Origin: Clostridiales bacterium
Lineage (GTDB): Bacteria > Bacillota > Clostridia > Christensenellales > CAG-917
Reading direction: 5' to 3'
NCBI GenBank assembly: GCA_022009995.1
Contig: CP091734.1
Location: forward strand, 128,997 to 192,996
DNA length: 64,000 nt
Shown here piece after piece: positions 3,106-62,859 of this stretch. Position numbers and translations under genes: made by a program. Under the pieces are notes generated by a model. That model worked only from the letters and a program-made list of their open reading frames with translations. It did no database searches and was not told where the DNA came from. Every line of letters starts with the position of its first letter. The first letter of the stretch is position 1.

Positions 3106-6100
3106 TTAGCCGTAATAGTACCCGCCGAAATTCCATTTGGTATAAGTTTTCTTTTCGCTTGATTCGATATAGTCGATATCGATATCGCTGCCAGCGCCGC
3201 CCGCGCTTGACGATACGTCAAACGCCTGGAAGACCAGGTTTCCGATATTACTGCCTTTGACCGAAATATCTTTTGCGACAATTGTTGCCTGGTTGTTGTT
3301 TGAGTATGCGTTGGGCAGAATTCCCAAAAAGCCCGTGGAGTTGTTGACGTATTTACCGTTGGGAAGATACACAAACCCGTTGATATAACCGCCACGTCCC
3401 AGAAGCAACTGGTTGCCCATCGTCCCGATAATGCACAGATTGCCGCTTTCAACGGTGTTGACTTCTTTTGCCGCAAGTTTAAGGCTGCTTTCGTTTTCAC
3501 CGTTCATCGTATAAGAACCCGAATAGGTGGTGTAGAAGCCCGAGTAGAAATGCGTGCCGAGCATCGAGTCACTTCTGTCCGCCGAGTCGTCGTTGATACC
3601 GCCGCCCATGTTGACGCTGAGCTTATATGCGTTTGCATTGATGGAAGTGTCGCCGACAAGCATAATATAGGCGTTGTGTGTGCCCTTAACGCGCCAGCTG
3701 CATTTTCTGAACTCAATGCCCGCTTGAAGTTCGTAATCGCCCTTGCCTTCGCCGACCAGCGTGTACTCGTCGCCGTTTCACGTATGAACCTTTCTCCCCT
3801 TTTTCGACATTGACTTTGATATATTTCGAAGGCGCGTTGATATAAACGTAGACGTCTTTTTTGGTTGCGTCGATTGTGATATTCATACGTTTTGAATTGT
3901 TCAGTTGGTTAATCGAGGCGATTACGCCGTCATCTTTACTCGCGCCAAAGACAACGGCGGATTGACCTTCTAACCCGGTATTTATACCGCCGCCAGAACG
4001 ACCAAAGTTGAAATACGTGTCTTCGGATATGGTATAGTCCACTTGCGTACGTATTCCGCTCATCGCGTTTTTGATATTGGTAAATACACCGCCTTGATCT
4101 CCGCCAATGGGATTTCCTTTGTCGTCATAAGTACAATACAGCGGATCCAAGCCGAAAGTATTGTCGCAAGTCAACGGCGTGACGTTGTTGTCGATGCTGT
4201 TTGTGAACCGTAAAACGCGCACGCTATTGTCGACGCTATCGCTGTTGTAAATCGCATAAAACTTATTGTCGGAGCCAATACTAGTAAGCTTGTGTCTGAT
4301 GTACGTCCATACATTATTGATATTTTTCTCTTTCCAACTAATTTCTATCCCGAGAAATTCAACAAGACCATTTATGTTCGCAAGATTATTAATGTCATAG
4401 AAGTTAGTTCTACCCCTAGGATCGATTGGCTTTTTTTCTAACATTTTATTAAGCTCGTCGATAGAAATTTTTTTACTTCCTTCATACAGTTCTTTCAATA
4501 TTAAATAATCCTGTTTAAGCTCCATTAACGGGTTCAGTGATGTATCCTGTACTTCACTTACCTGGTTGTATTCGTTGACCTTGATTTTTTTGTCGTCGAT
4601 TAGTTTGCGCATATCATCTTCGGTGAGCTTATTTGTTTTAAGTATCGCGATTTTTGCAAACCCTTCGTCGATAATTTCCCTGAAAACCGCTGAAACGCTT
4701 GAATTTTTGTCCGCGTTCGCATACCGCGCGTTGGATGAGCGCAGATACATTCCGTGGTCTTCGCCGCTGAACGCGCGCACGGATAAGAATGCGCTTTCGC
4801 CGACTGTGGTTTCACTATCAGCAAAAATCATTTTATCAACTTTGACGTCTTTGCCCGTAATCGCCTTGAAACTGTTCTTGGCGCTAGTGCTTAAAAGTGC
4901 CAGCTGTTTGACGTTGGCATAATTTTCAACCACGTCTTTTATGTCATCATACGTTAAGACTATTTTCGGGTTATTATACTCAGCCTTGTTTTTATTCGTC
5001 GCAATGATGCCTGTGGTTCCTAAGTTGTCGGCAAAGCTATACGTCCCTACATTAAGTGCACGTTTTCTGATTTCACCCTTTCTTCCGCCACCAACGGTAA
5101 AGTTAAAACCGAACGTACCATCACCGAAAACCTGAGCGATTGTATACCTTTCTTTAATTACTGTTCGTTTGTCCACATAATTCTTCACGACTGTTTTCAA
5201 TGTATTTTCATCGATTCCGTATAATCCGTCGCTGAATTTGAATTTGAATTTATTGTCTTTATTGTCTTCATTGTCTTTATTTTCCATTACCCGCTGAATT
5301 ACTGCCTTTTCGTCATCAGTAAACCCGGCATCTTTCATAAATTTATCCAGTTCGTCGAGGTTGTAAGCTGTATATGGTTTCAGACTGTCTGAGTATTGAT
5401 CAACAATATAAAACTTTTTGTCCAAAAACTTATACAACACTCTGGGTACTAAAAGATATTCTGCTTGTTTTCCGTTCTCTTTTGTCCATTCAATTGTCCT
5501 GTCTGTATCCCCATGCCTTTCATAATCCGTGCATTTATAGTAGGCTAATGCGATAAGATCATATTTCAGGAAGACGCAGTCATTGCCTTTCTCGTCATCC
5601 TTAATGCTGTACGTTAAGTCGGCATATCCCGTATATATGTTGTCGTTGTCGTCAAACTTCAAATATTTTTCTTTCAGTTCTTTAAGTGCCTTATCTTCGT
5701 CACAACCATTGACTTTCATAATAAGATCAAGAAGACTATGCTCCTGATATTCGCTTGAAATCATCTCGCCAATGGTGTCGATTTTTTTCGCGCTCACGCC
5801 AGCTTCGCTTTTATAACCGAACGCGTTGATACCGACAGCCTCGATATTGCCGCTGCCTAAGTAAATCTCGTTTACTTTGAGAGTCCGATATTTTACAGTG
5901 AGCGCGGCTTTGTAAGATACGTCGTTTACCGTGCTGACCGAGGTCTCATCGATGTCCACGCGCGACTCCCGCACCAGTGAAGTGCTGTTAAGTTGGCGCT
6001 GTACCTTTACTTTTTCTTCCGAGCCTTCTTTCTTTTCCGTATTTTCAATAAGCGACTTGTAAGCCCAGTTATAGATATAAAGATTGGAAGTTTCGCTGAA

Positions 6101-8056
6101 TTCTACGGGGCGATACTCTTTATGCACGCCGCCGTCTATTCCCTCCGCGGACAAGTAGCCGTCCCCTTTTAAGATATATCCGCTGTCGTTTATTGTTTTA
6201 TCGAATGCTCCTACCAAGGCGTTTTTCAAATTGCTTTGTCCGAAGTCTTTTAGCGCGGTTAAAAAGCTTTCGACTTTACTATTATCCGTAAAACTGTGCA
6301 CAAAATTATAAGTTAATAAATTTTTTCTATTGTATTCAAATCTGTAAGAACCGGTTGCATCGTAATTAAAGCTGCCTGCGTTTTTGTTCCAATTTTCACC
6401 GTCAAAACCAAGCAATGTTTTCAGACGCGAGAAGAAATTGGTGCTTTGGAAAGTTTCATTGTCAAAATAACGGTTGAAATTTGAACCGTTCATTCTTGTG
6501 AACATGTCTTTATTGCCTGTGCTTTCGGACGTGAGAACAAGATTTTCGGGCGCAATAATCATGCGTCCCATGCAGAATATGTCGCCCCTCATCTTGGTTT
6601 TGTTGTAAGACACAGTGGCGTCTTCAACTTTATCACAATCTTCTTTCTTTGAAGCATCTATTTTACCTTTGCCGGTGCTGTCATAAATAGCCAGGTCATG
6701 ATATATGTATTCGGTGCTGTGGCCTAATGCTTTCGGCGCATAAACCCAGTTATATCCATAGTTCACCCTGTCAAAGATAATATCGCCGCTGCAATATACG
6801 TTGCCGCCCTTCGGATACTGCATTATCATGTCTTCGGGTTTGCATTCGGACGTGGAATACATCGTCGCGCCGAGATATTGTTTGTTTCTGCTGTCTGTTG
6901 CATCCACCGGGCGTAATTCGCCGTTAACTCTTTCCCTGAGCGTTATCGTGACTTCTTCAACCGCGCCGTTCTCCGCCCAGTTTCTTGTCCAGAAATTGCA
7001 TGTTTCGGCATTTCAGGCGCACGATCCATAAGGGTATAGTGCGAGACTTCGTCATAAACCTGCAACGGCAAAAAGTCGTCGTCGTCGCCGTTTTTGTATT
7101 TCAGATACATCGCCTCGTTCACTTTGCCCTCTTGTTCGCGCTCTATGTATTCGCCGGTGCCAAGGATATCGAAGCCTGCAAAAGTCTTGTTGCCGATCGT
7201 GCTGTATTTGATATAGTTTTTGTTGTACGTTTTTTTGAAAAGCGCGGGAAGATTTACGCCAAGGTCAAGCCCGCGTATTGTAAGATTGCCGTCGCAATAG
7301 ATATTGCCCTGAACTTTTATAACGTTGTCGGCAGCGCCGATAATAAGGTCGCCGTTGGCAAAGATACTTCCCGTAAGACCTTCAAGAATAATCGGGTTAA
7401 AGTATCGGGTGGTCATCTTCTTCACGGTTTCCCCGTTTACGACTTCTTCATCCCAACAGTTTATTGAAATATCGCCCTCGATTCTCTTGAAAACAAGGTC
7501 GTCGCGCTTTTTTTCACCGCCCAAGTCGTTGTTCGTTACCAAGGCGTTGCCGAACGTGTCTTTGAGTGTAACGTTTAACTGTCGTTTCTTTGTTATAAGT
7601 GAAGCTCACCGTTCTTTCTTGCGAGCCTTTTACGCCCCTTACGTCGACAAGCACGCTGTCAAGCGACGTCTTTACCTTTGAAGCGTTGGTAAGCGTGATG
7701 TAAACTTTCACACCGTTGATTATTGTGAAATCGTCAAGTTTATCATCAAGATCGCCGTTGTTGAATTGGAGTTTGACGGGCTTATCTTGTTCAAGCTCAA
7801 AGGAATTGCTTTCGATAAGTTTGCCGAGATATGTGGAGCTTTTCAGCGTTTCGGTCATTACGAGTGCTGCGTTGTACGCGCGTTCCTGCTGGGTGTCCGC
7901 AATGCTGTTCGAGAAGGAGGAAAGCGTCACAAAGAGCATAGAAGTGCCTACGACGATAATAATCGCCATAGTCATAAGTACCATAAGCATCGCGCTGCCG
8001 CGTTTTTTATTGTACCGCTTGTTAAACCTTTCTATATTTTTTAATAACGTCAGCAT
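3106..8056 (-). CDS. Giant (~1650 aa) pilus-associated protein with a PilX-N-like hydrophobic N-terminus. Candidate tip adhesin. Reconstructed from 4 ORFs with 3 apparent frameshifts.
   Basis: GGAGG RBS and ATG at 8056: MLTLLKNIERFNKRYNKKRGSAMLMVLMTMAIIIVVGTSMLFV. The frames remain open and protein-like across the junctions at about 7570, 6990 and 3775 (for example ...KGEKGSYV / NGDEYTLVGEGKGDYELQAGIEF...). It ends ...KWNFGGYYYG. A recurring G-[DN]-[IV]-[YF]-C-x-G motif is present. Confidence 0.6.
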
Positions 8057-22828: not shown

Positions 22829-22904
22829 TGGTGGAGATGAGGGGGGTCGAACCCCTTACCTCTTGAATGCCATTCAAGCGCTCTACCAGTTGAGCTACAC
22901 CCCC
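22829..22904 (-). tRNA. tRNA-Ala (anticodon GGC), 76 nt with encoded CCA.
   Basis: GGGGGTGTAGCTCAACTGGTAGAGCGCTTGAATGGCATTCAAGAGGTAAGGGGTTCGACCCCCCTCATCTCCACCA. It folds as a cloverleaf with the G3:U70 Ala identity pair, anticodon loop AUGGCAU and T loop UUCGACC. Confidence 0.9.
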
Positions 22905-43847: not shown

Positions 43848-46266
43848 TTAATTCTTTTCGGAAGTCGTTTTTTCGTCTTCGGAAGGCTCCGTGGAATCGG
43901 GGCTTAGCGCAACTTCTTCGACGGCGGCTTTTTGTTTTCTTCTGAACAGTTTTGAAAAGTCGGTTTTATCGACGACTTTCTCTGTCACCAGAAGAAGCGA
44001 CGGCAGGACGAACAACACGATGATTATCGACGTCAGCGTGCCTACGCCCAGCAACAGCCCGAGTTGCGCCACCACACCCGACGACAGCATACTCATAACG
44101 AAGCCGGTTGCCGTAAGAATGACGCCCGACGTCAGAATTGTCGGGAACACGGCGTTTGTTGCGGCAGCCATTGCGTCGTAGCGGTCGGTAAAATCTTTCC
44201 TTATGCCGCGGTATCTGTTGGTAAGTACGATTGCATAGTCGATTGTCGCGCCCATCTGTATCGCGCTTATTATAAGGTAGCCGATGAACGAAATCGACGT
44301 CTTGGACAAGAACGGAATCGCAAAGTTGATGAAAATTCCGCCCTGAATCGCAAGAATAAGGATTATCGGAAGCGAAATATTCCTGAACGTTATAAGCAAT
44401 ATAACCAGAATGAACAAGTCGGTGAACAGACACACCATAAGGTTGTCTTTCATAAAATATTCGCTCATCTCATAGCACACGACGCTTTCGCCGGTGATAT
44501 ATCTTTCCTCGTAAAAGTCGGACACACCCGATTTCAAGGTTTTGACAAGTTCAAACACGTCGTCGTCTTCCACCCCGCCGTTGATGTTGAACGTGATGCG
44601 GGAATAGTTTTCGGATTCGAGATTTGCCTTTGCAAAGGAAATTTGCTTGACCTGTTCAAGATACGCAAGCTTTTCGGGATCGTCCCCTATAAACCTGGAA
44701 ATCGCGTCGAACTTTTCGCGGACGGCAAAATCCAACAAATCAATAAGTCTGACTTTGGCTTTGCTTGGTTTGGTACCTTCGGGCAGATATTTTTTGACGT
44801 AATCGTCAAACCAACCCTCGATTATAGGTTTGATAATCAACGGACTTACGCCCGCGTCGGACGGGATTTTGTCGATTAAGTCCCCGATATCCTTTTTCGA
44901 CACCTCGTCGGTAAGATACAGCGTTTCCGAAGAATCCGCGTCGATGAAAGAATACACGTTGATTGTCGCAAGAGCAGTCGTCTGCGATTTGTCGATAAGG
45001 TCGAAAGACTCCACGTATTTCACAAGTTGGCGTTCTTTCGGCGTCGCCTTTCGGCACAACCACGACAAGCGAGTTAAGCGTGCCGAAGCCCGTTTCTTCG
45101 ATGACCTTTTTCGGCGCGACGATAAGCGAGCCGCTGTTGTAGTTGAACGAATATTTGTTGAACCCCTGCGCGACTCCCGCAAGGATTGCGATAAGCAAAA
45201 ACGCCGGCACGATAACTTTCCTTGCTTTGACGATTGCACGCGCGGGCTTCGTAACGTTCGGCACGAAAGATTTATGACGGGTTTTTTGAATGGGTTTGTC
45301 GAAAATCACGAGAAGCGCGGGCATAAAGAATATGACCGTCGCCATCGAGATGACGATACCTTTTGCAAGCGACAATCCGATTTCCGCGCCGATTGACAGC
45401 GTCATCAGCATAAGCGCGGCAAGCCCCGCCACCGTCGTAAGGGAACTTGACAGAATTTCGGGCAGTCCTTTCGTAAGTGCGGTAACCGTTGCGGTTTTTG
45501 CGTCTTCGCCGTTATCCCTTTCTTCCATATAGCGGTGCAAAAGGATAATCGAGTAGTCAAGCGACAGCGCGAGTTGCAGCACGAGCGCGACCAGATTCGC
45601 AATGTAAGAAATACCGTTGACGAACAAGAAATTCGTCCCCATGTTTATCGCCATCGCCGCACCGAAAACGAGAATGAGCACAATCAGTTCAAAATAAGTT
45701 TTCGACGTAAACAGCATAACCAGAAGAATAATCACGACGATTGCGATTCCAAGCTTCATTATGCTTTGTTCGGTTTCAAGTTTTGTGTAGTATGAAAATG
45801 CAGATTGACCGGATAAATATGCTTTTTCGTCGGATAAAGCGTCGATTACGCCCTTTACCGCGTCAAACGCACCTTTCGTCGAGTCATAGTCTTTCAGCGT
45901 TACGGTATAGAGTGCCGAGTTGTTTTTGTAGTTCATACTCTCAACGTAAGTAACCGTTGCGACGCCCTCGACTTGTTCAAGTCTCGTCTTGATTTCGCCT
46001 GCTTTTTCGGGCGTAACGTCCTTTACCATAACGTATGCCATGCCCTTGTCGTCAAACTCTTTTTTCAGAAGTTCGAGAGCGGTTGACGAATCGCAATTCG
46101 CGGGCAGATAACCCGTCAGGTCATAGTTGATTTTCGTACGCGGAATCATCACCGCGCCGAATATCGACAGCGCGACGAACAGCACGAGAAACACCCATTT
46201 GAGTTTTACGATACCTTCGGGAATTTTTTTCAGACCGTGTGAAATCTTTGATAACTTCTTTTGCAT
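43848..46266 (-). CDS. MMPL/RND-superfamily membrane transporter (~805 aa). One frameshift near 45000.
   Basis: Two halves (ORFs 44806-46266 and 43848-45239), each with a periplasmic-type domain followed by a 5-6 TM bundle (...LALSLDYSIILLHRYMEE... / ...MGATIDYAIVLTNRYRG...). Confidence 0.8.
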
Positions 46267-48452: not shown

Positions 48453-48635
48453 GTGCCCTTCCGGGAGATTCTCACGTCGCTTTGCTCCTCAGAATGACAG
48501 AGTACTTCGTACGGAATAGAATAAAAGAATGTTTGTTAAGAAAAATAGCAAAATTACGAAATAGCCTTTTTTCTTCCGTGCAACGCACTTTATGTCATTG
48601 CGAGCGCAGCGTGGCAATCTCCCGGAAGGGACACC
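48453..48635. repeat. REP/MITE-like element: imperfect ~45-nt inverted repeats flanking a ~95-nt AT-rich core.
   Basis: GTGCCCTTCCGGGAGATTCTCACG...AATGACA (48453-48499) against TGTCATTGCGAGCGCAGCGTGGCAATCTCCCGGAAGGGACACC (48593-48635). The TGTCATTGCGAGCG and GGTGTCCCTTCC modules recur at 52265-52382. Confidence 0.5.
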
Positions 48636-48686: not shown

Positions 48687-48714
48687 TTGAAAAAGCCAAA
48701 TTATATGCTATAAT
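48687..48714 (+). promoter_or_regulatory. Strong sigma-A promoter (extended -10) for the cassette array.
   Basis: TTGAAA (48687-48692), 16 nt, TGcTATAAT (48706-48714). Confidence 0.5.
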
Positions 48715-48717
48715 ATA

Positions 48718-48766
48718 CGTACAACGACCACAAACTTATATCGTTCATACCGTTTGCAACTTTACA
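48718..48766 (+). repeat. Cassette-junction repeat, diverged copy A (in the 5' UTR of the first cassette).
   Basis: It shares the blocks ACAAACTTATATCGT and ACCGTTTGCAAC with copies B and C (~75% identity over ~50 nt). Confidence 0.5.
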
Positions 48767-48791
48767 ATCGGGAGTCAATATTGAAGTAAAG

Positions 48792-49442
48792 ATGAAAAGC
48801 AAAAGACAGCAAAAACTATACGACCATTATAAAACCGTTTTCGGGGAAGAGCCGATTTTCAGTCTGAAACTTAAAAAGAACGTCCTGCCGACGGATATGA
48901 AGCCGATAACGACGCTTGTTTTCAAACCGACGGACGAAATGCCGTTTTGGAAACTGTGTACAATCGGCGCAAGCGATTATCTGATGCCCGAGCGTGATAT
49001 AGGCTTTGGAAGGAAGGCGAATCGCCGCAATGAGTATATGATGTTTATTTCGCCCGACGTCGATATTCGTAATCCTTCGGACGACGAAGACGCGCCGACG
49101 GACTGGCTATCGTTAAACTCGCTTCTTTGGGCAACTGCGGAATATGCGTTCAACGAAAAAGATAACATAACCGTTTCGGACACGCTCGATATGGGAATCG
49201 ACGGGAAATACTGCGGCACGGTACTTTTATTGCCAGAAATATTAAAATCGCCGAGTACAGTTAAGTGCTATGTTTCCGAGCATAAATACATCAGTATATT
49301 TCAGGTAATGCCGATAACGAGAGAGTTGCTTACAAAGAAACTCCGGAAGAAAGTGGGCGGCATTTATTGGCTTATGGAACAGTTTTACACGCACGACGAC
49401 GATTACAAACTTATATCGTCCAAACCGTTTGCAACGTTATAA
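48792..49442 (+). CDS. SUFU-like (suppressor of fused domain) protein, a family used as polymorphic-toxin immunity proteins.
   Basis: 216 aa. ...MPFWKLCTIGASDYLMPE...RRNEYMMFISPD...DWLSLNSLLWATAEYAF... follows the bacterial SUFU-domain pattern as I recall it. No search was run. Confidence 0.55.
   Translation: MKSKRQQKLYDHYKTVFGEEPIFSLKLKKNVLPTDMKPITTLVFKPTDEMPFWKLCTIGASDYLMPERDIGFGRKANRRNEYMMFISPDVDIRNPSDDEDAPTDWLSLNSLLWATAEYAFNEKDNITVSDTLDMGIDGKYCGTVLLLPEILKSPSTVKCYVSEHKYISIFQVMPITRELLTKKLRKKVGGIYWLMEQFYTHDDDYKLISSKPFATL
49381..49442 (+). repeat. Cassette-junction repeat, copy B (the last 62 nt of the SUFU-like ORF including its stop).
   Basis: CAGTTTTACACGCACGACGACGATTACAAACTTATATCGTCCAAACCGTTTGCAACGTTATA. 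It is 61/62 identical to 49954-50015. Confidence 0.8.
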
Positions 49443-49468
49443 AACTCAATGGAGCGCGAGGGCGTAAT

Positions 49469-49951
49469 ATGTCAAACACTATTTCAATAGATGAACTGAT
49501 AGAACAAGAATATGAGCAACAATATTTTGAAGAGTGCAAATTTATATGGCAAAACTTTGTTCCCAAAAGTGGACAAGCCCGAAATTTGCAAGGAGAATTG
49601 TTGCGAGAAATCGAGAATATTCGTTGTGAGGCACAAGATAACGGAAATGTTAATTGGGACGACGATCTTACTTATTTTTGTGAATTTATAAAGCAATCAT
49701 TGATTGAACAACCGATTTTTTCTGAACCCGAAAAAGAAAAAATATGTGTCATAATGAATTATCTCAAAGAATGCGGAGTATACGCTCAAAGATTCAACGA
49801 TGGTAAAATTTCTGATAACGATGTTCTTCCTGAAAAACTTGCGTATACAAAAGACAACCTTTACGATATTATTTGCGATTTTATAGGTAGATTACAAAAT
49901 AAGCACCCTGAACCTATTAAATACAGCATAAATAATTCAATAAAGAGATAA
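49469..49951 (+). CDS. Hypothetical cytoplasmic protein (160 aa), immunity-like cassette 2.
   Basis: GAGGG RBS plus ATG 49469: MSNTISIDELIEQEYEQQYFEECKFIWQNFVPKSGQARNLQGELLREIENIRCEAQDNGNVNWDDD... No signal peptide or TM. Family not recognised. Confidence 0.5.
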   Translation: MSNTISIDELIEQEYEQQYFEECKFIWQNFVPKSGQARNLQGELLREIENIRCEAQDNGNVNWDDDLTYFCEFIKQSLIEQPIFSEPEKEKICVIMNYLKECGVYAQRFNDGKISDNDVLPEKLAYTKDNLYDIICDFIGRLQNKHPEPIKYSINNSIKR

Positions 49952-49953
49952 TA

Positions 49954-50015
49954 CAGTTTTACACGCACGACGACGATTACAAACTTATATCGTCCAAACT
50001 GTTTGCAACGTTATA
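49954..50015 (+). repeat. Cassette-junction repeat, copy C (non-coding, fills the gap between cassettes 2 and 3).
   Basis: It differs from copy B by one C>T change. It begins 3 nt after the cassette-2 stop and ends 16 nt before ATG 50032. Confidence 0.8.
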
Positions 50016-50031
50016 GACGTAGGAGTATAAT

Positions 50032-50648
50032 ATGGAAAAACCGACCGAAGAATATTTACAGGAACTGATATCAAACGCACGAAAAAAATTCGATGAGTTT
50101 TCATATTGTTTTGCGGATATTCCAAACGCAAAAATAACATATGTGAACACACAAAAGAGAAACCTGACGGGGATGACAAAAGGGCTTCGCGGGCTTGCAG
50201 AAATGAAAGCGCATAATACAAAAGAATCATTGAAAATCAGTCCGAACTCCAAAAATTACAATAAGTTTTATAGGTCGGGCGAAAAAGTGATAAAAGTCGA
50301 GTGTTTCGTAGGCGGGCATAACGATTTGGACGTGATATACGTCGCGCAATACGACGGTGAACGACGCTATCTTTTCCCTTTTTTTGAGGATAAGAGCAAA
50401 CCGTCGGATATCCGATTCTCGTGACGAATTTTGAAAACGGCAAAGTCACCGAAGAATACAGAGTGGACGGAAATAAGATTCTTTATGAAAAGTATGATTA
50501 TTCCTTAAAAGACACGGTCGGATATTATTGCATAAACTTTGTTCCGACGGGAATTTGTCCGGTTTTGGGCGAAGAAGAAGGATATTTTAACATAAATTCG
50601 CTTGAATACAGACAGACGAAAAACGAAGTCTGGTGTCAAAAACAATAA
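50032..50648 (+). CDS. Hypothetical protein (~205 aa), cassette 3. One frameshift near 50400.
   Basis: MEKPTEEYLQELISNARKKFDEF...FFEDKSK joins TVGYPILVTNFENGKVTEEYRVDGNKILYEKYDY... (ORF 50421-50648 frame, open upstream). Confidence 0.45.
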
Positions 50649-50658
50649 AGGTGAAACT

Positions 50659-52254
50659 ATGGAAAATGTTTACGAGAAAATTCAAAAGTATAAGAAACTG
50701 GCGGTGAAAAAACCGAAGTATTATGTTTCTATCGGTAATATTTATATCGAAGAGGGCGCTTTCAAGGCCGCAACGATTTACTATCAAAAAGCCGTCGACA
50801 ACGGCGTTTTGGCATATACTGTTCTTGGCGACACTTGGGGCTACCGCTCTCAATACAAAAAAGCGTTCGACGTTTATACGGAGGGCGCAAACAAAGGCGA
50901 AGCGGAGTGTTTTGCCCGTCTTGGATTTTGCTATGAAAACGGTTATGTAAAAAAAATCGATATTCAAAAAGCAATCGAGTGTTACGCCAAAGCCTCCGAT
51001 TTGGGTGTGGCGGCAGCGGCAAGATCTCTCGGCGATTTGTATTATTTCAATACGCCGATTGAAGATTCCGAGATCGAAAACGTTAAAAATGCGTTGAAAT
51101 ATTACGAGCGTGCTTTTTACCTCGGAGATATAGAGGTTGCAAAAAAGATAGGCTTTATCTACTTAAACAATGAAGAACTGAAAGACGTTCCCAAAGCCAT
51201 AGAGTGGTACGAAAAGGGATTGAGTCTTGGCGATCACTCTCTCAACTTTGATTTGGCTTACGTTTATCTCAACGACAGGTTTGTTCCGCACGACTATGAA
51301 AAAGGTTTGAAATATCTTTTGGACGGCGTTCACCACAACGATCCCGAAAGCCTTTATATGTACGCAAGAGTTCGCGAAACGGGTATGTATAAGGTAGAAC
51401 CCGACAAAAAGGCATATATTCATTATCTCAAAAAGGCGGCGAACCTTTGTCAGGACGACGCATTGCTTGATTTGGGGTATTACTATTACAAAAAAGGCAA
51501 GTATGACGACACGCTCGATTGTTTTGCACTGTGCGATTTGGATTATGTCGGCGTTTATTGGTGTATGGCGACGATTTACGAAACCAAAAAAGCCGATTAC
51601 AAAAATGCGCTGTTTTATTATCAGATGGCAATGGAAATGGACTTTCCGGACGCAATCGAACGAATGGCGGAAGCGTATCTCGGCGACGAACTTGGACTTG
51701 AAAAGGACGAGAAAACCGCCCTTAAACTTTTCAAACGAGCCGCGAAACTCGGCAACGCCGCCGCACAATATAATCTCGGTATGGCGTATGCTTGCGGATA
51801 TTACGGCGTAACACCCGATAAAGATAAGGCACTTCATTGGCTGAAACAGAGCGTTAAAGGCGAAAATCCGTCGGCGTGCCTGCAAGTGGGGCTTTATTAC
51901 TACTACACCGTCAAAACCGAAGCGGCTTATAAAAAAGCCTTTGAATTATTTACCGACGCATACAATCTCGGCGAGAACGAAGCGATTATCAATATCGGAC
52001 TTTGCTATCTTCAAGGCAACGGCGTGAAAGAAGACAAAAAAGAAGCGGTAAAATGCTTTAAGACAGCCGCCGAAAAGTACAGTTCGGGCGTTGCGTATCA
52101 CAATCTCGGAATCTGCTATGAAAACGGATTTGGTGTGAGAAAAGACTATAAGAAAGCAATTGAAATGTACGGCAAAGCGGTAGAGAACGGCGAAAAAGCA
52201 GGACTTGAAGGAATTAAAAACGTTTATTTGAAAATGGGTAAAGATAAAAATTAA
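50659..52254 (+). CDS. Sel1-repeat (SLR/TPR-like) protein, 531 aa. Intact.
   Basis: About 12 repeats of the type A.KWY.KAA..G...A...LG..Y..G.GV..D..KA (for example KALHWLKQSVKGENPSACLQVGLYYYY; AVKCFKTAAEKYSSGVAYHNLGICYENGFGVRKDYKKAIEMYGKA). Confidence 0.85.
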   Translation: MENVYEKIQKYKKLAVKKPKYYVSIGNIYIEEGAFKAATIYYQKAVDNGVLAYTVLGDTWGYRSQYKKAFDVYTEGANKGEAECFARLGFCYENGYVKKIDIQKAIECYAKASDLGVAAAARSLGDLYYFNTPIEDSEIENVKNALKYYERAFYLGDIEVAKKIGFIYLNNEELKDVPKAIEWYEKGLSLGDHSLNFDLAYVYLNDRFVPHDYEKGLKYLLDGVHHNDPESLYMYARVRETGMYKVEPDKKAYIHYLKKAANLCQDDALLDLGYYYYKKGKYDDTLDCFALCDLDYVGVYWCMATIYETKKADYKNALFYYQMAMEMDFPDAIERMAEAYLGDELGLEKDEKTALKLFKRAAKLGNAAAQYNLGMAYACGYYGVTPDKDKALHWLKQSVKGENPSACLQVGLYYYYTVKTEAAYKKAFELFTDAYNLGENEAIINIGLCYLQGNGVKEDKKEAVKCFKTAAEKYSSGVAYHNLGICYENGFGVRKDYKKAIEMYGKAVENGEKAGLEGIKNVYLKMGKDKN

Positions 52255-52261
52255 GCTATGT

Positions 52262-52647
52262 CGAGGTGTCCCTTCCTCAGTGATATGCCAGCGGCGTGGT
52301 ATTGTCTTTGACAGTGATATGCCTACGGCGTGATATTTGCCCTGCGGACAAGTTATGGATAAGTATTTGTCATTGCGAGCGGAAAACCGGGGACCCCACG
52401 GGTACACAGTATCCCGCGGGGTCCCCATTTTCCACGAATTTTCAGGTTCCGCCGAAAAGGCGCAAACATACAAGCGTTAAAAACCGAGAATGCGTCGCAC
52501 ACTGCACTTTTGAAATCACATTATTGCAAGCAATAATGCTCACTCTTATGCTTGTGTGCTCCTTTTCCCCACGGGTACACAGTATCCCGTGGGGTCCCCA
52601 TTTTCCACGGATTTTCAGGTTCTCGGAAAAACTCAAAAAGGCGCAAA
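52262..52647. repeat. Cluster of REP-like structured repeats (1.5 tandem units plus TGTCATTGCGAGCG and GGTGTCCCTTCC modules).
   Basis: CCCCACGGGTACACAGTATCCCG(C/T)GGGGTCCCCATTTTCCACG(A/G)ATTTTCAGGTT occurs at 52394 and 52567. The unit 52497-52575 recurs at 58455-58559. It contains nested hairpins (CCCCACGGG/CCCGTGGGG; TTATTGC/GCAATAA; GCACAC/GTGTGC). Confidence 0.6.
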
Positions 52648-58454: not shown

Positions 58455-58559
58455 CGCACACTTCGCTTTTGAAATCACGTTATCGCAAGCGATAACGCTC
58501 ACTCTTTTGCTTGTGTGCGCCTTTTCCCCGCGAGTACACAGTATCCCGCGGGGTCCCCA
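58455..58559. repeat. Third copy of the REP-like structured repeat.
   Basis: GCGCACACTTCGCTTTTGAAATCACGTTATCGCAAGCGATAACGCTCACTCTTTTGCTTGTGTGCGCCTTTTCCCCGCGAGTACACAGTATCCCGCGGGGTCCCCA aligns with 52497-52600. Substitutions in the TTATYGC/GCRATAA and CCCCRCG/CGYGGGG stems are compensatory. Confidence 0.6.
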
Positions 58560-62635: not shown

Positions 62636-62691
62636 AAAAAAACCTCCTTTAAGAGGTTCGCGTTAAAAGCCGCGCGAAAACGCGGTACTTC

Positions 62692-62781
62692 GCAGCGAAC
62701 GCGACAAGCCACCGCAGGTTTCCCTTTCGTTTGCGGGCGACATTCCATCCCGCAACACTTAACGCGACTTATCTACTCTGC
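62692..62781 (-). promoter_or_regulatory. THF (tetrahydrofolate) riboswitch, folT motif.
   Basis: Minus strand: GCAGAGUAGAUAAGUCGCGUUAAGUGUUGCGGGAUGGAAUGUCGCCCGCAAACGAAAGGGAAACCUGCGGUGGCUUGUCGCGUUCGCUGC. It matches, block by block, the Eubacterium siraeum THF aptamer as I recall it (AGAGUAGAU..UCGCGUUAAGUGU, AUGG.AUGUCG, AACGAA, GCGGUG, CGCU). Confidence 0.85.
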
Positions 62782-62859
62782 AACGCTAATAATAAACTAT
62801 CCGCGCCGAAAAATCAAGCGGCGGCGCATAAATCGCGAAAACTTAAAAATAATAGCGAT

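Follow-up and report, generated by a model that had tools for sequence, protein, structure and literature searches.

We analyzed a 64,000-nucleotide (nt) stretch of DNA, referred to here as the window, from a Clostridiales bacterium (GTDB Christensenellales, CAG-917; GenBank assembly GCA_022009995.1, contig CP091734.1, positions 128,997 to 192,996). Our subject is a gene cluster at positions 48687 to 52254 of the window, in which a 62-nt sequence occurs as a direct repeat. The cluster is an accessory operon with a SUFU-family gene first, a Sel1-repeat gene last, and zero to two variable genes, which we call cassettes, between them. The repeat is the coding 3' tail of the SUFU gene in duplicate. 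We consider it likely that the locus is an accessory polyimmunity-type operon reshuffled by ordinary homologous recombination. The cluster had first been noticed from the letters of the window alone (the sequence-only reading), as an island of immunity-like cassettes separated by a junction element. That interpretation was half right: the locus is a strain-variable, horizontally refreshed, immunity-like island, yet the 62-mer is a duplicated gene tail. The features of the cluster are as follows.

48687-48714, forward strand: promoter TTGAAA-16-TGcTATAAT, sigma-70 type, consensus score 11/12 with an upstream TG
48715-48785, forward strand: copy A of the repeat, best read as a decayed relic of an older junction at which a SUFU 3' tail met a leader of the Sel1 type; it now forms the operon's 5' leader
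48792-49442, forward strand: SUFU-family gene, 216 amino acids (aa), Pfam SUFU PF05076 (E 7.8e-11), the conserved first gene
49380-49441, forward strand: copy B, the final 20 codons of the SUFU open reading frame (ORF) 48792-49442 together with part of its stop codon; QFYTHDDDYKLISSKPFATL
49469-49951, forward strand: gene2, 160 aa, an all-alpha, low-GC cassette of no known family
49954-50015, forward strand: copy C, a non-coding duplicate of the SUFU tail between gene2 and gene3 that travels with gene2
50032-50648, forward strand: gene3, the second cassette, 204 to 205 aa elsewhere and frameshifted in the window
50659-52254, forward strand: Sel1-repeat gene, 531 aa, Pfam Sel1 (E 1.8e-51), the conserved and highly mosaic last gene
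52255-52393, forward strand: 3' trailer with which the inserted segment ends; a Gut-1-like RNA motif, scoring below threshold, lies at 52278-52341

RESULTS

The 62-nt repeat is the 3' end of the SUFU gene

We compared the window with about 110 related loci from genomes and metagenomes, cited here as L plus a number. Scanning one genome per species with a degenerate 31-nt pattern drawn from the repeat yielded 17 loci; by BLAST, homology between the window and these loci began at the SUFU start codon and ended at the Sel1 stop codon, and the flanks were unrelated. A further 80 metagenome loci were retrieved with peptide patterns from the middle of the SUFU protein, to avoid selecting on the repeat. 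Contigs of the same species as the window were gathered by looking up its exact YqeY protein, and relatives of the SUFU protein comprised 228 protein clusters at least 69% identical.

The near-exact duplication described in the sequence-only reading was borne out, with the coordinates of copy B corrected by one base. Copies B and C are identical at 61 of 62 positions, or at 62 of 63 when one extra upstream base is included, and no comparable match arose in 100 shuffles of the window. The search for further copies had been proposed as a check, and each of the 17 genome loci that it recovered carries a copy ending the SUFU ORF, as do the metagenome loci. Past the SUFU stop codon, the sequence diverges according to the gene that follows. 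Across the SUFU-gene family, protein-level conservation extends to the C-terminal peptide GIYWLMEQFYTHDDDYKLISSKPFATL.

Gene2 is the only cassette with a second copy of the tail. The left junction of gene2 with copy C (gagataa followed directly by TACAGTT) is identical in 21 of the 27 gene2 loci in which it could be read, and 4 more have variant or indel forms. This junction is the same whether the next gene is gene3, Sel1, or G12, a cassette that encodes a 188-aa lipoprotein. Downstream of copy C stands exactly the sequence that follows the SUFU stop codon in alleles lacking gene2. Among loci, copy C shows indels of +1, -1, -6, and +11 nt, which are expected because it is non-coding DNA, and 5' truncation is also tolerated. 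The junctions of Sel1 with gene3, G12, and G21 (a cassette encoding a membrane-anchored HExxH protein of about 520 aa) contain neither the repeat nor a shared core. The proposed bracketing of cassettes by direct repeats therefore stands for gene2 and fails beyond it, for example between gene3 and Sel1. Nor did the 62-mer hold as a general junction element between cassettes: it is a SUFU coding tail duplicated once, behind gene2. Two loci (L015 and L036) carry a divergent gene2 without copy C, directly ahead of a divergent Sel1 gene, and this arrangement is probably the older state.

The diverged third copy reported downstream of the promoter, copy A, is real, though decayed. It shows 68% identity across 63 ungapped nt, with a 31-nt core (48730-48760) at 93.5%. 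When a 3-nt gap is allowed, positions of about 48715 to 48785 can be aligned with the place where the SUFU tail meets the Sel1 start in L067 and L071. The alignment runs about 20 nt past the end of the 62-mer (AATCGGGAGTCAATATTGAA versus AATCGGGTGGCAATA-TGAA), and the former Sel1 ATG now reads ATT. Copy A is restricted to the species of the window; other leader types of the operon lack it. From this alignment, the best reading of copy A is a scar left by an earlier SUFU-Sel1 unit ahead of the present one, and not a junction element.

The repeat is at most a patch of homology

A hairpin in the repeat, with a compensatory change in copy A, had suggested that the junction is recognized as a structure. 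The hairpin GACGAT-N11-ATCGTC and the change of its outer pair from G:C to A:T in copy A are present in the sequence, but the innermost pair is broken in copy A and the fold does not exceed that of shuffled sequences (z between -0.4 and +0.8 for the three copies, with and without their downstream leaders). Rfam at a permissive threshold gave nothing on the repeat. In a set of loci not selected on the repeat, codon identity at synonymous sites was 0.795 for the last 20 codons versus 0.706 for the rest of the gene, and 10-codon windows ranged from 0.575 to 0.897. In distant homologues the tail had changed at every third position, the proposed stem positions included, and the 62-mer was undetectable in 14 loci of another lineage. 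The tail thus shows ordinary synonymous conservation and no folding signal, and recognition of the junction as a structure is not supported. We regard the 62-mer as at most a patch of homology, not a structured recombination site.

We also considered an unusually high conservation of the tail (95% versus 81%), seen in loci that had been retrieved with the repeat pattern itself. It was rejected as ascertainment bias; with the peptide-retrieved loci, the excess nearly vanished.

These data bear on the idea that the repeat is a cis-acting RNA, serving ahead of three cistrons as a leader for processing, stabilization, or translation control. The spacing is suggestive, since the copies end 16 to 28 nt before start codons (48766/48792, 49441/49469-49470, and 50015/50032), copy A begins at about the predicted transcription start, and copy C is highly similar in most loci. 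However, the lack of a folding signal and of an Rfam match argues against such a role, as do the absence of the repeat ahead of Sel1 and the other cassettes, the leader types without copy A, and the indels and 5' truncation that C copies tolerate. Copy C is similar among loci because the gene2 unit as a whole, 99 to 100% identical in most of its carrier loci, spread recently. We therefore consider an RNA function very improbable.

Cassettes turn over between identical flanks

In the species of the window, the operon is flanked on the left by flavodoxin, uracil-DNA glycosylase, helix-turn-helix (HTH), and YqeY genes and on the right by a 960-aa ABC/FtsX gene and ClpB. Between identical YqeY and ABC/FtsX flanks, we found five architectures as well as empty sites.

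Empty site: L099, L100, L107
SUFU-Sel1, with or without a YhbY/CRM gene: L018, L021, L098, L103, L104
SUFU-gene2-Sel1: L022, L023, L026, L102, L105, L106
SUFU-gene3-Sel1: L024, L032
SUFU-gene2-gene3-Sel1: the window, L025, L046, L048, L101

This presence/absence polymorphism at one locus, which extends to comparisons between species, supports the expected turnover of cassettes between strains. At the empty sites, the interval is occupied by palindromic units resembling repetitive extragenic palindromes (REP), in variable copy number.

A second context lies downstream of a bacteriophage exclusion (BREX) system and was seen in the upstream 7 kb of L020, L028, L034, L038, L054, L056, L058, L063, and L071. 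It comprises a PglX-like C terminus, PglZ, BrxL, and a WYL regulator ending 30 nt ahead of the SUFU start. In this context, the operon contains no cassette, G12, G21, gene2 plus gene3, or gene2 plus G12. Other contexts adjoin tRNA genes, a rhamnosidase gene, pseudouridine-metabolism genes, and others. The GC content of the host flanks ranges from 31 to 54% (0.31 to 0.54), and that of the SUFU gene ranges from 37 to 46%.

Recombination within the end genes probably carries the cassettes

In most carrier loci, gene2 is 99.4 to 100% identical and gene3 98.9 to 99.4% identical, whereas in the same loci SUFU is only 79 to 98% and Sel1 73 to 96% identical. Within the species of the window, the core flanks are 94 to 98% identical, compared to 99.6 to 100% for gene2, 99.0 to 99.4% for gene3, and 85 to 94% for Sel1. 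Because gene2 and gene3 exceed the core flanks in identity, these cassettes spread more recently than the strains diverged. The SUFU and Sel1 end genes are mosaics.

In mismatch maps, divergent sequence gives way to near-identical sequence at about 49280, a point within SUFU that lies some 100 nt ahead of the repeat. Since the breakpoint lies upstream of the tail, the tail hitchhikes with the cassettes, and its apparent conservation is accounted for in this way. On the left, every cassette is bounded exactly by the SUFU stop codon; at the right boundary, each cassette supplies its own ribosome-binding site and the first six or so codons of Sel1. The gene2 unit precedes three different downstream partners (gene3, G12, and Sel1). 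In L028, copy C carries the CTGATAGAATCC variant, which elsewhere is the SUFU tail of the SUFU-G12 alleles (L056, L045, and L041), a chimera that points to a crossover at or within the tail. The involvement of the repeated tail in recombination, as first suggested, is thus upheld by L028. Precise exchange of cassettes at the junction is not, given the breakpoints about 100 nt upstream and the form of the deletion scars: in L053 the gene3 leader is fused to the Sel1 start, and in L005 the leader and trailer of G12 are left without the G12 body. Cassette losses are imprecise.

We found no recombinase among the genes within 8 kb on either side of the operon in 10 strains of the window's species; the only recombinase type seen was a serine recombinase, in 3 of about 100 contexts, these 3 being unrelated. 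The early observation that neither a toxin nor a recombinase lies near the locus of the window was upheld over the same 8 kb on each side. The module had no match in viral contigs, phage records, or plasmid records, and no terminal repeats delimiting it were found. In the window the module is surrounded by REP-like palindromes, and a flanking pair, GGAAGGGACACC and GGTGTCCCTTCC, belongs to them.

In the explanation that we find most likely, this operon of gut Clostridia would be a small, heterogeneous polyimmunity-type locus that stores proteins against the toxins of competitors. Incoming DNA from other strains or species would recombine within SUFU and Sel1 and carry the middle genes along, and imprecise deletions would afterwards remove genes. 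One ancestral event would have put the non-coding tail copy behind gene2. Its simplest origin would be that a SUFU-gene2 unit was stacked before a second unit led by SUFU, whose SUFU body was then deleted. Gene2 and the tail would have moved as a unit since then, and the tail would offer a short stretch of homology for deleting or inserting gene2 or for joining it to another downstream cassette. Copy A would be a further decayed relic of an older SUFU-to-Sel1 junction. The order of these historical events, and RecA-type recombination as their enzymatic basis, we infer.

The same breakpoints could be read differently, with the tails as neutral leftovers and all variation arising through the long SUFU and Sel1 homology and random deletions. 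The position of the breakpoints inside SUFU and not at the repeat, the mosaic end genes, the imprecise deletion scars, and the decay of copies A and C agree with that proposal. However, the chimeric tail of L028 joins the left junction of gene2 to the tail variant of SUFU-G12, and the gene2 unit stands before three partners with each junction exactly as in the gene2-less alleles. Crossovers in the tail are the simplest explanation of both observations. A direct repeat of 62 nt with its copies 574 nt apart is, moreover, a plausible substrate for deletion. We therefore hold purely neutral tails to be improbable.

A quite different possibility is an integron-like system, or one like the acquired interbacterial defense (AID) islands, in which the 62-mer would be a structured docking site analogous to attC and a remote recombinase would capture and excise cassettes precisely. 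The resemblance to integrons is clear in that a promoter at one end leads an array of unrelated promoterless genes, and one cassette, gene2, is bracketed by direct repeats. The exact left boundary of each cassette at the SUFU stop codon, the 6-bp hairpin with one compensatory change in copy A, and the near-identical cassettes in hosts of differing GC content would also fit. But a second copy exists only at gene2, and the junctions of gene3, G12, and G21 with Sel1 lack it. The repeat is coding in its master copy and is kept as sequence and not as structure, the hairpin being no better than shuffles and broken at third positions in divergent homologues, and the synonymous conservation of the tail being ordinary. 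Breakpoints lie about 100 nt upstream, C copies contain indels, and recombinases are rare or absent as described above. The locus falls outside the definition of an integron because it has no integrase, no attC-type site for each cassette, and imprecise losses. We rate an integron-like mechanism as highly improbable.

We give scarcely more weight to the SUFU tail as a dedicated docking site in coding sequence, used by a remote recombinase or another targeted mechanism to capture near-identical cassettes of other species, which would make the operon a Firmicute analogue of integrons or of recombinase-associated AID (rAID) islands. That small weight is kept because cassettes start at the SUFU stop codon and because gene2 and gene3 have swept through hosts of 31 to 54% GC without a visible vehicle.

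Promoter and genes of the operon

The promoter at 48687-48714 is the top consensus site between 48300 and 52700, and the sole comparable internal site overlaps the ribosome-binding site of gene3. It is conserved in all strains of the window's species. The strong promoter that had been placed at the head of the four-gene array is thus the best-scoring site of the region, and the transcription of the array from it is predicted. The assignments of the first gene as SUFU-like and of the 531-aa last gene as a Sel1-repeat protein are both supported by Pfam.

Gene2 has a GC content of 0.33, versus 0.44 to 0.50 in the flanks. Gene3 in the window consists of two ORFs (50032-50424 and 50421-50648) split by a 1-nt deletion after 50400; the gene is intact in other strains, and the deletion is unique to the window among the strains compared. 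An MMPL transporter gene (43848-46266, reverse strand) is likewise present as two overlapping ORFs in the window and as one ORF of 806 to 813 aa in other strains. Either these frameshifts mark real pseudogenes or they are indel errors of the assembly.

The 3' trailer with its Gut-1-like motif is missing at empty sites and common to strains with the same Sel1 3' end. The match to the Gut-1 motif (RF01706) scores 38.7 bits, against a gathering score of 50, with an E value of 3e-5 in a 4.3-kb search. The motif consists of three short hairpins with GUGAnAU spacers, directly 3' of the Sel1 stop codon.

Several further observations concern the surroundings of the operon. In the empty site of L099, three REP-like units of about 103 nt stand in tandem. 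In the window, palindromes resembling REP elements or miniature inverted-repeat transposable elements (MITE) lie at 48456-48630, 52384-52431, 52567-52622, and 58527-58548 (for example, CCCCACGGGTACACAGTATCCCGCGGGGTCCCC), and the REP/MITE-like units at the intergenic region of the module include an inverted repeat with 21-nt arms. In the BREX lineage, Sel1 is followed by a gene for a LexA-like repressor. L001 (about 3890-3970) and L008 (about 7095-7180) each have a tRNA gene a few hundred bases ahead of the module, and in L001 and L010, SUFU is preceded by an ORF of 24 codons and a small HTH gene of the XRE type (68 aa). A second widespread leader type (L002, L011, L013, L014, L033, and others) starts with TGTCAATGACGAACAAAAAGGAGCG about 170 nt upstream of SUFU, just past the terminator of the upstream gene, and has a TTGAAA-17-TATAAT promoter and a short ORF, MTNKKERLFKPKTG; in L013, the short ORF continues in frame into SUFU. 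The left end of this leader may be the boundary of a transferred unit. Elsewhere in the window, and unrelated to the operon, are a tetrahydrofolate riboswitch (62691-62782, reverse strand, 75.9 bits) and a tRNA gene (22832-22904, reverse strand).

Immunity is a tentative function

Among the immunity superfamilies of polymorphic toxin systems, SUFU (PF05076) is second in breadth to SUKH, and it is found in polycistronic polyimmunity loci that have no toxin and vary from strain to strain (PMC3482391). The assignment of immunity-type genes made at first sight holds in part: SUFU and Sel1 are kinds known among immunity proteins, but gene2 and gene3 match no immunity family. Immunity proteins with Sel1 repeats are known. 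Judging from membership of the first gene in the SUFU family, from the Sel1 repeats of the last, and from the pattern across the population, we put the chance that the operon confers immunity at somewhat under even. A possible alternative is another conflict-related role, for example one linked to defense islands.

Such a role could be antiphage defense or an envelope or stress function, with SUFU and gene2 acting as a pair and Sel1 as a scaffold. The module has no visible toxin partner, and in one lineage it is co-oriented directly behind BREX and the WYL regulator. SUFU and gene2 also occur as a conserved pair without Sel1, and the lipoprotein, HExxH, and YhbY cassettes fit this proposal as well. 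Against it, no PADLOC family matched, except for QatB with gene2 at an E value of 0.007, the only profile match of that protein, and SUFU is on record as an immunity superfamily whose members occur in polyimmunity loci that vary by strain and have no toxin (PMC3482391). We consider another accessory function possible, though doubtful. The presence/absence polymorphism and the sweeps across species fit any conflict system and do not discriminate.

In the window's species, the 8 kb to each side of the operon contained no toxin domain. Genes for a type VII secretion system (T7SS) and LXG and WXG100 genes were absent from the flanks examined, the rest of the genome not having been searched. Large or uncharacterized neighboring ORFs at other loci encode a surface repeat protein, an rRNA methylase, a GGDEF-HD regulator, BipA, and similar proteins. 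PDB sequence profiles gave nothing significant for gene2 or gene3. The AlphaFold 2 model of gene2 is a confident all-alpha fold (predicted local distance difference test [pLDDT] score, 92), and that of gene3 has an N-terminal helix and beta-hairpin repeats (pLDDT, 90), with a weak best PDB match to 3msw (E 3e-3).

In four loci (L111 to L114, 6486-7510), gene2 homologues of 169 aa occur singly among core-genome genes (smc ... apbA ... ftsY), and ahead of them lie an ORF of about 90 to 103 aa with a Glyco_hydro_46 (chitosanase/lysozyme-like) match and a 52-aa ORF. The Glyco_hydro_46 ORF and the gene2 homologue may be a decayed toxin-immunity pair.

DISCUSSION

Several points weigh against a polyimmunity-type operon reshuffled by homologous recombination. 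A toxin gene or domain stands beside none of the roughly 110 loci, which leaves immunity a tentative assignment. Gene2 and gene3 belong to no family in Pfam, NCBIfam, PADLOC, or PHROGs, and Foldseek against PDB and BFVD returned no convincing relative of either. Some of the alternative cassettes (lipoproteins, the membrane-anchored HExxH protein, and the YhbY/CRM RNA-binding protein) fit immunity only loosely. The flanks are unrelated between contexts and most loci have no mobility gene, which leaves the arrival of the module at new sites unexplained. The crossover role of the 62-mer rests on one clear chimera, L028, and on parsimony, and most of the variation could have come from exchange via longer flanks.

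To the extent that it could be tested, the SUFU-Sel1 locus belongs with the heterogeneous polyimmunity loci of polymorphic toxin systems described by Zhang, Iyer, Aravind, and colleagues in 2011 and 2012 (PMC3482391), the immunity role being the inferred part. Like those loci, it is co-directional and apparently polycistronic, has no adjacent toxin, encodes SUFU-superfamily and repeat proteins, varies in gene number and type between strains of one species, and occurs in Firmicutes of dense communities. Unlike them, it has only 2 to 4 genes in a fixed frame, with SUFU first and Sel1 last, and a tail duplicate that travels with one cassette. Moreover, two of its members have no recognized Imm family, and some of its cassettes are of the lipoprotein or YhbY kind.

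Recombination between conserved blocks also drives gain and loss in the T7SS immunity arrays esaG and tipC (Garrett et al. 2022; PMC9484751). The two systems share gain and loss through short conserved blocks at gene ends, in Firmicutes and without a dedicated recombinase. They differ in that the blocks of the T7SS arrays lie in full-length tandem paralogues, whereas here there are one full SUFU gene and two relic tails; here, too, the exchanged genes are mutually unrelated, and no T7SS or LXG toxin was seen near the locus. Orphan modules of contact-dependent inhibition (CDI) and Rhs systems likewise keep a 3' fragment of the upstream gene before a displaced downstream gene and use it as homology. 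In those systems the fragment is of a toxin gene, while here it is of an immunity-like SUFU gene with no toxin; the locus is not of that type because the retained fragment does not come from a toxin gene.

The rAID islands of Bacteroidales, reportedly described by Ross et al. in 2019, are said to carry a tyrosine recombinase and repeated intergenic elements at each cassette. By that account, the present locus resembles them as a toxin-less orphan array of immunity type in gut bacteria, shared across species and variable between strains. It would differ from them in having no accompanying recombinase and a repeat at one cassette only, which is a gene tail.

If the immunity function is true, small-genome gut Clostridia of the Christensenellales type would keep a compact, horizontally refreshed store of orphan immunity genes, in which individual cassettes have recently swept across species. 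Such a pattern is well documented in Bacteroidales and hardly at all in gut Firmicutes. The candidates to be matched with toxins would then be the SUFU protein, gene2, gene3, the Sel1 protein, the G12 lipoprotein, and the G21 protein. The locus reveals no new recombination mechanism, and it offers a clean natural example of a duplicated gene tail serving as portable homology. Its clearest value lies in the sweeps of gene2 and gene3 across species of gut Clostridia and in the concrete candidates that it provides for a toxin hunt.

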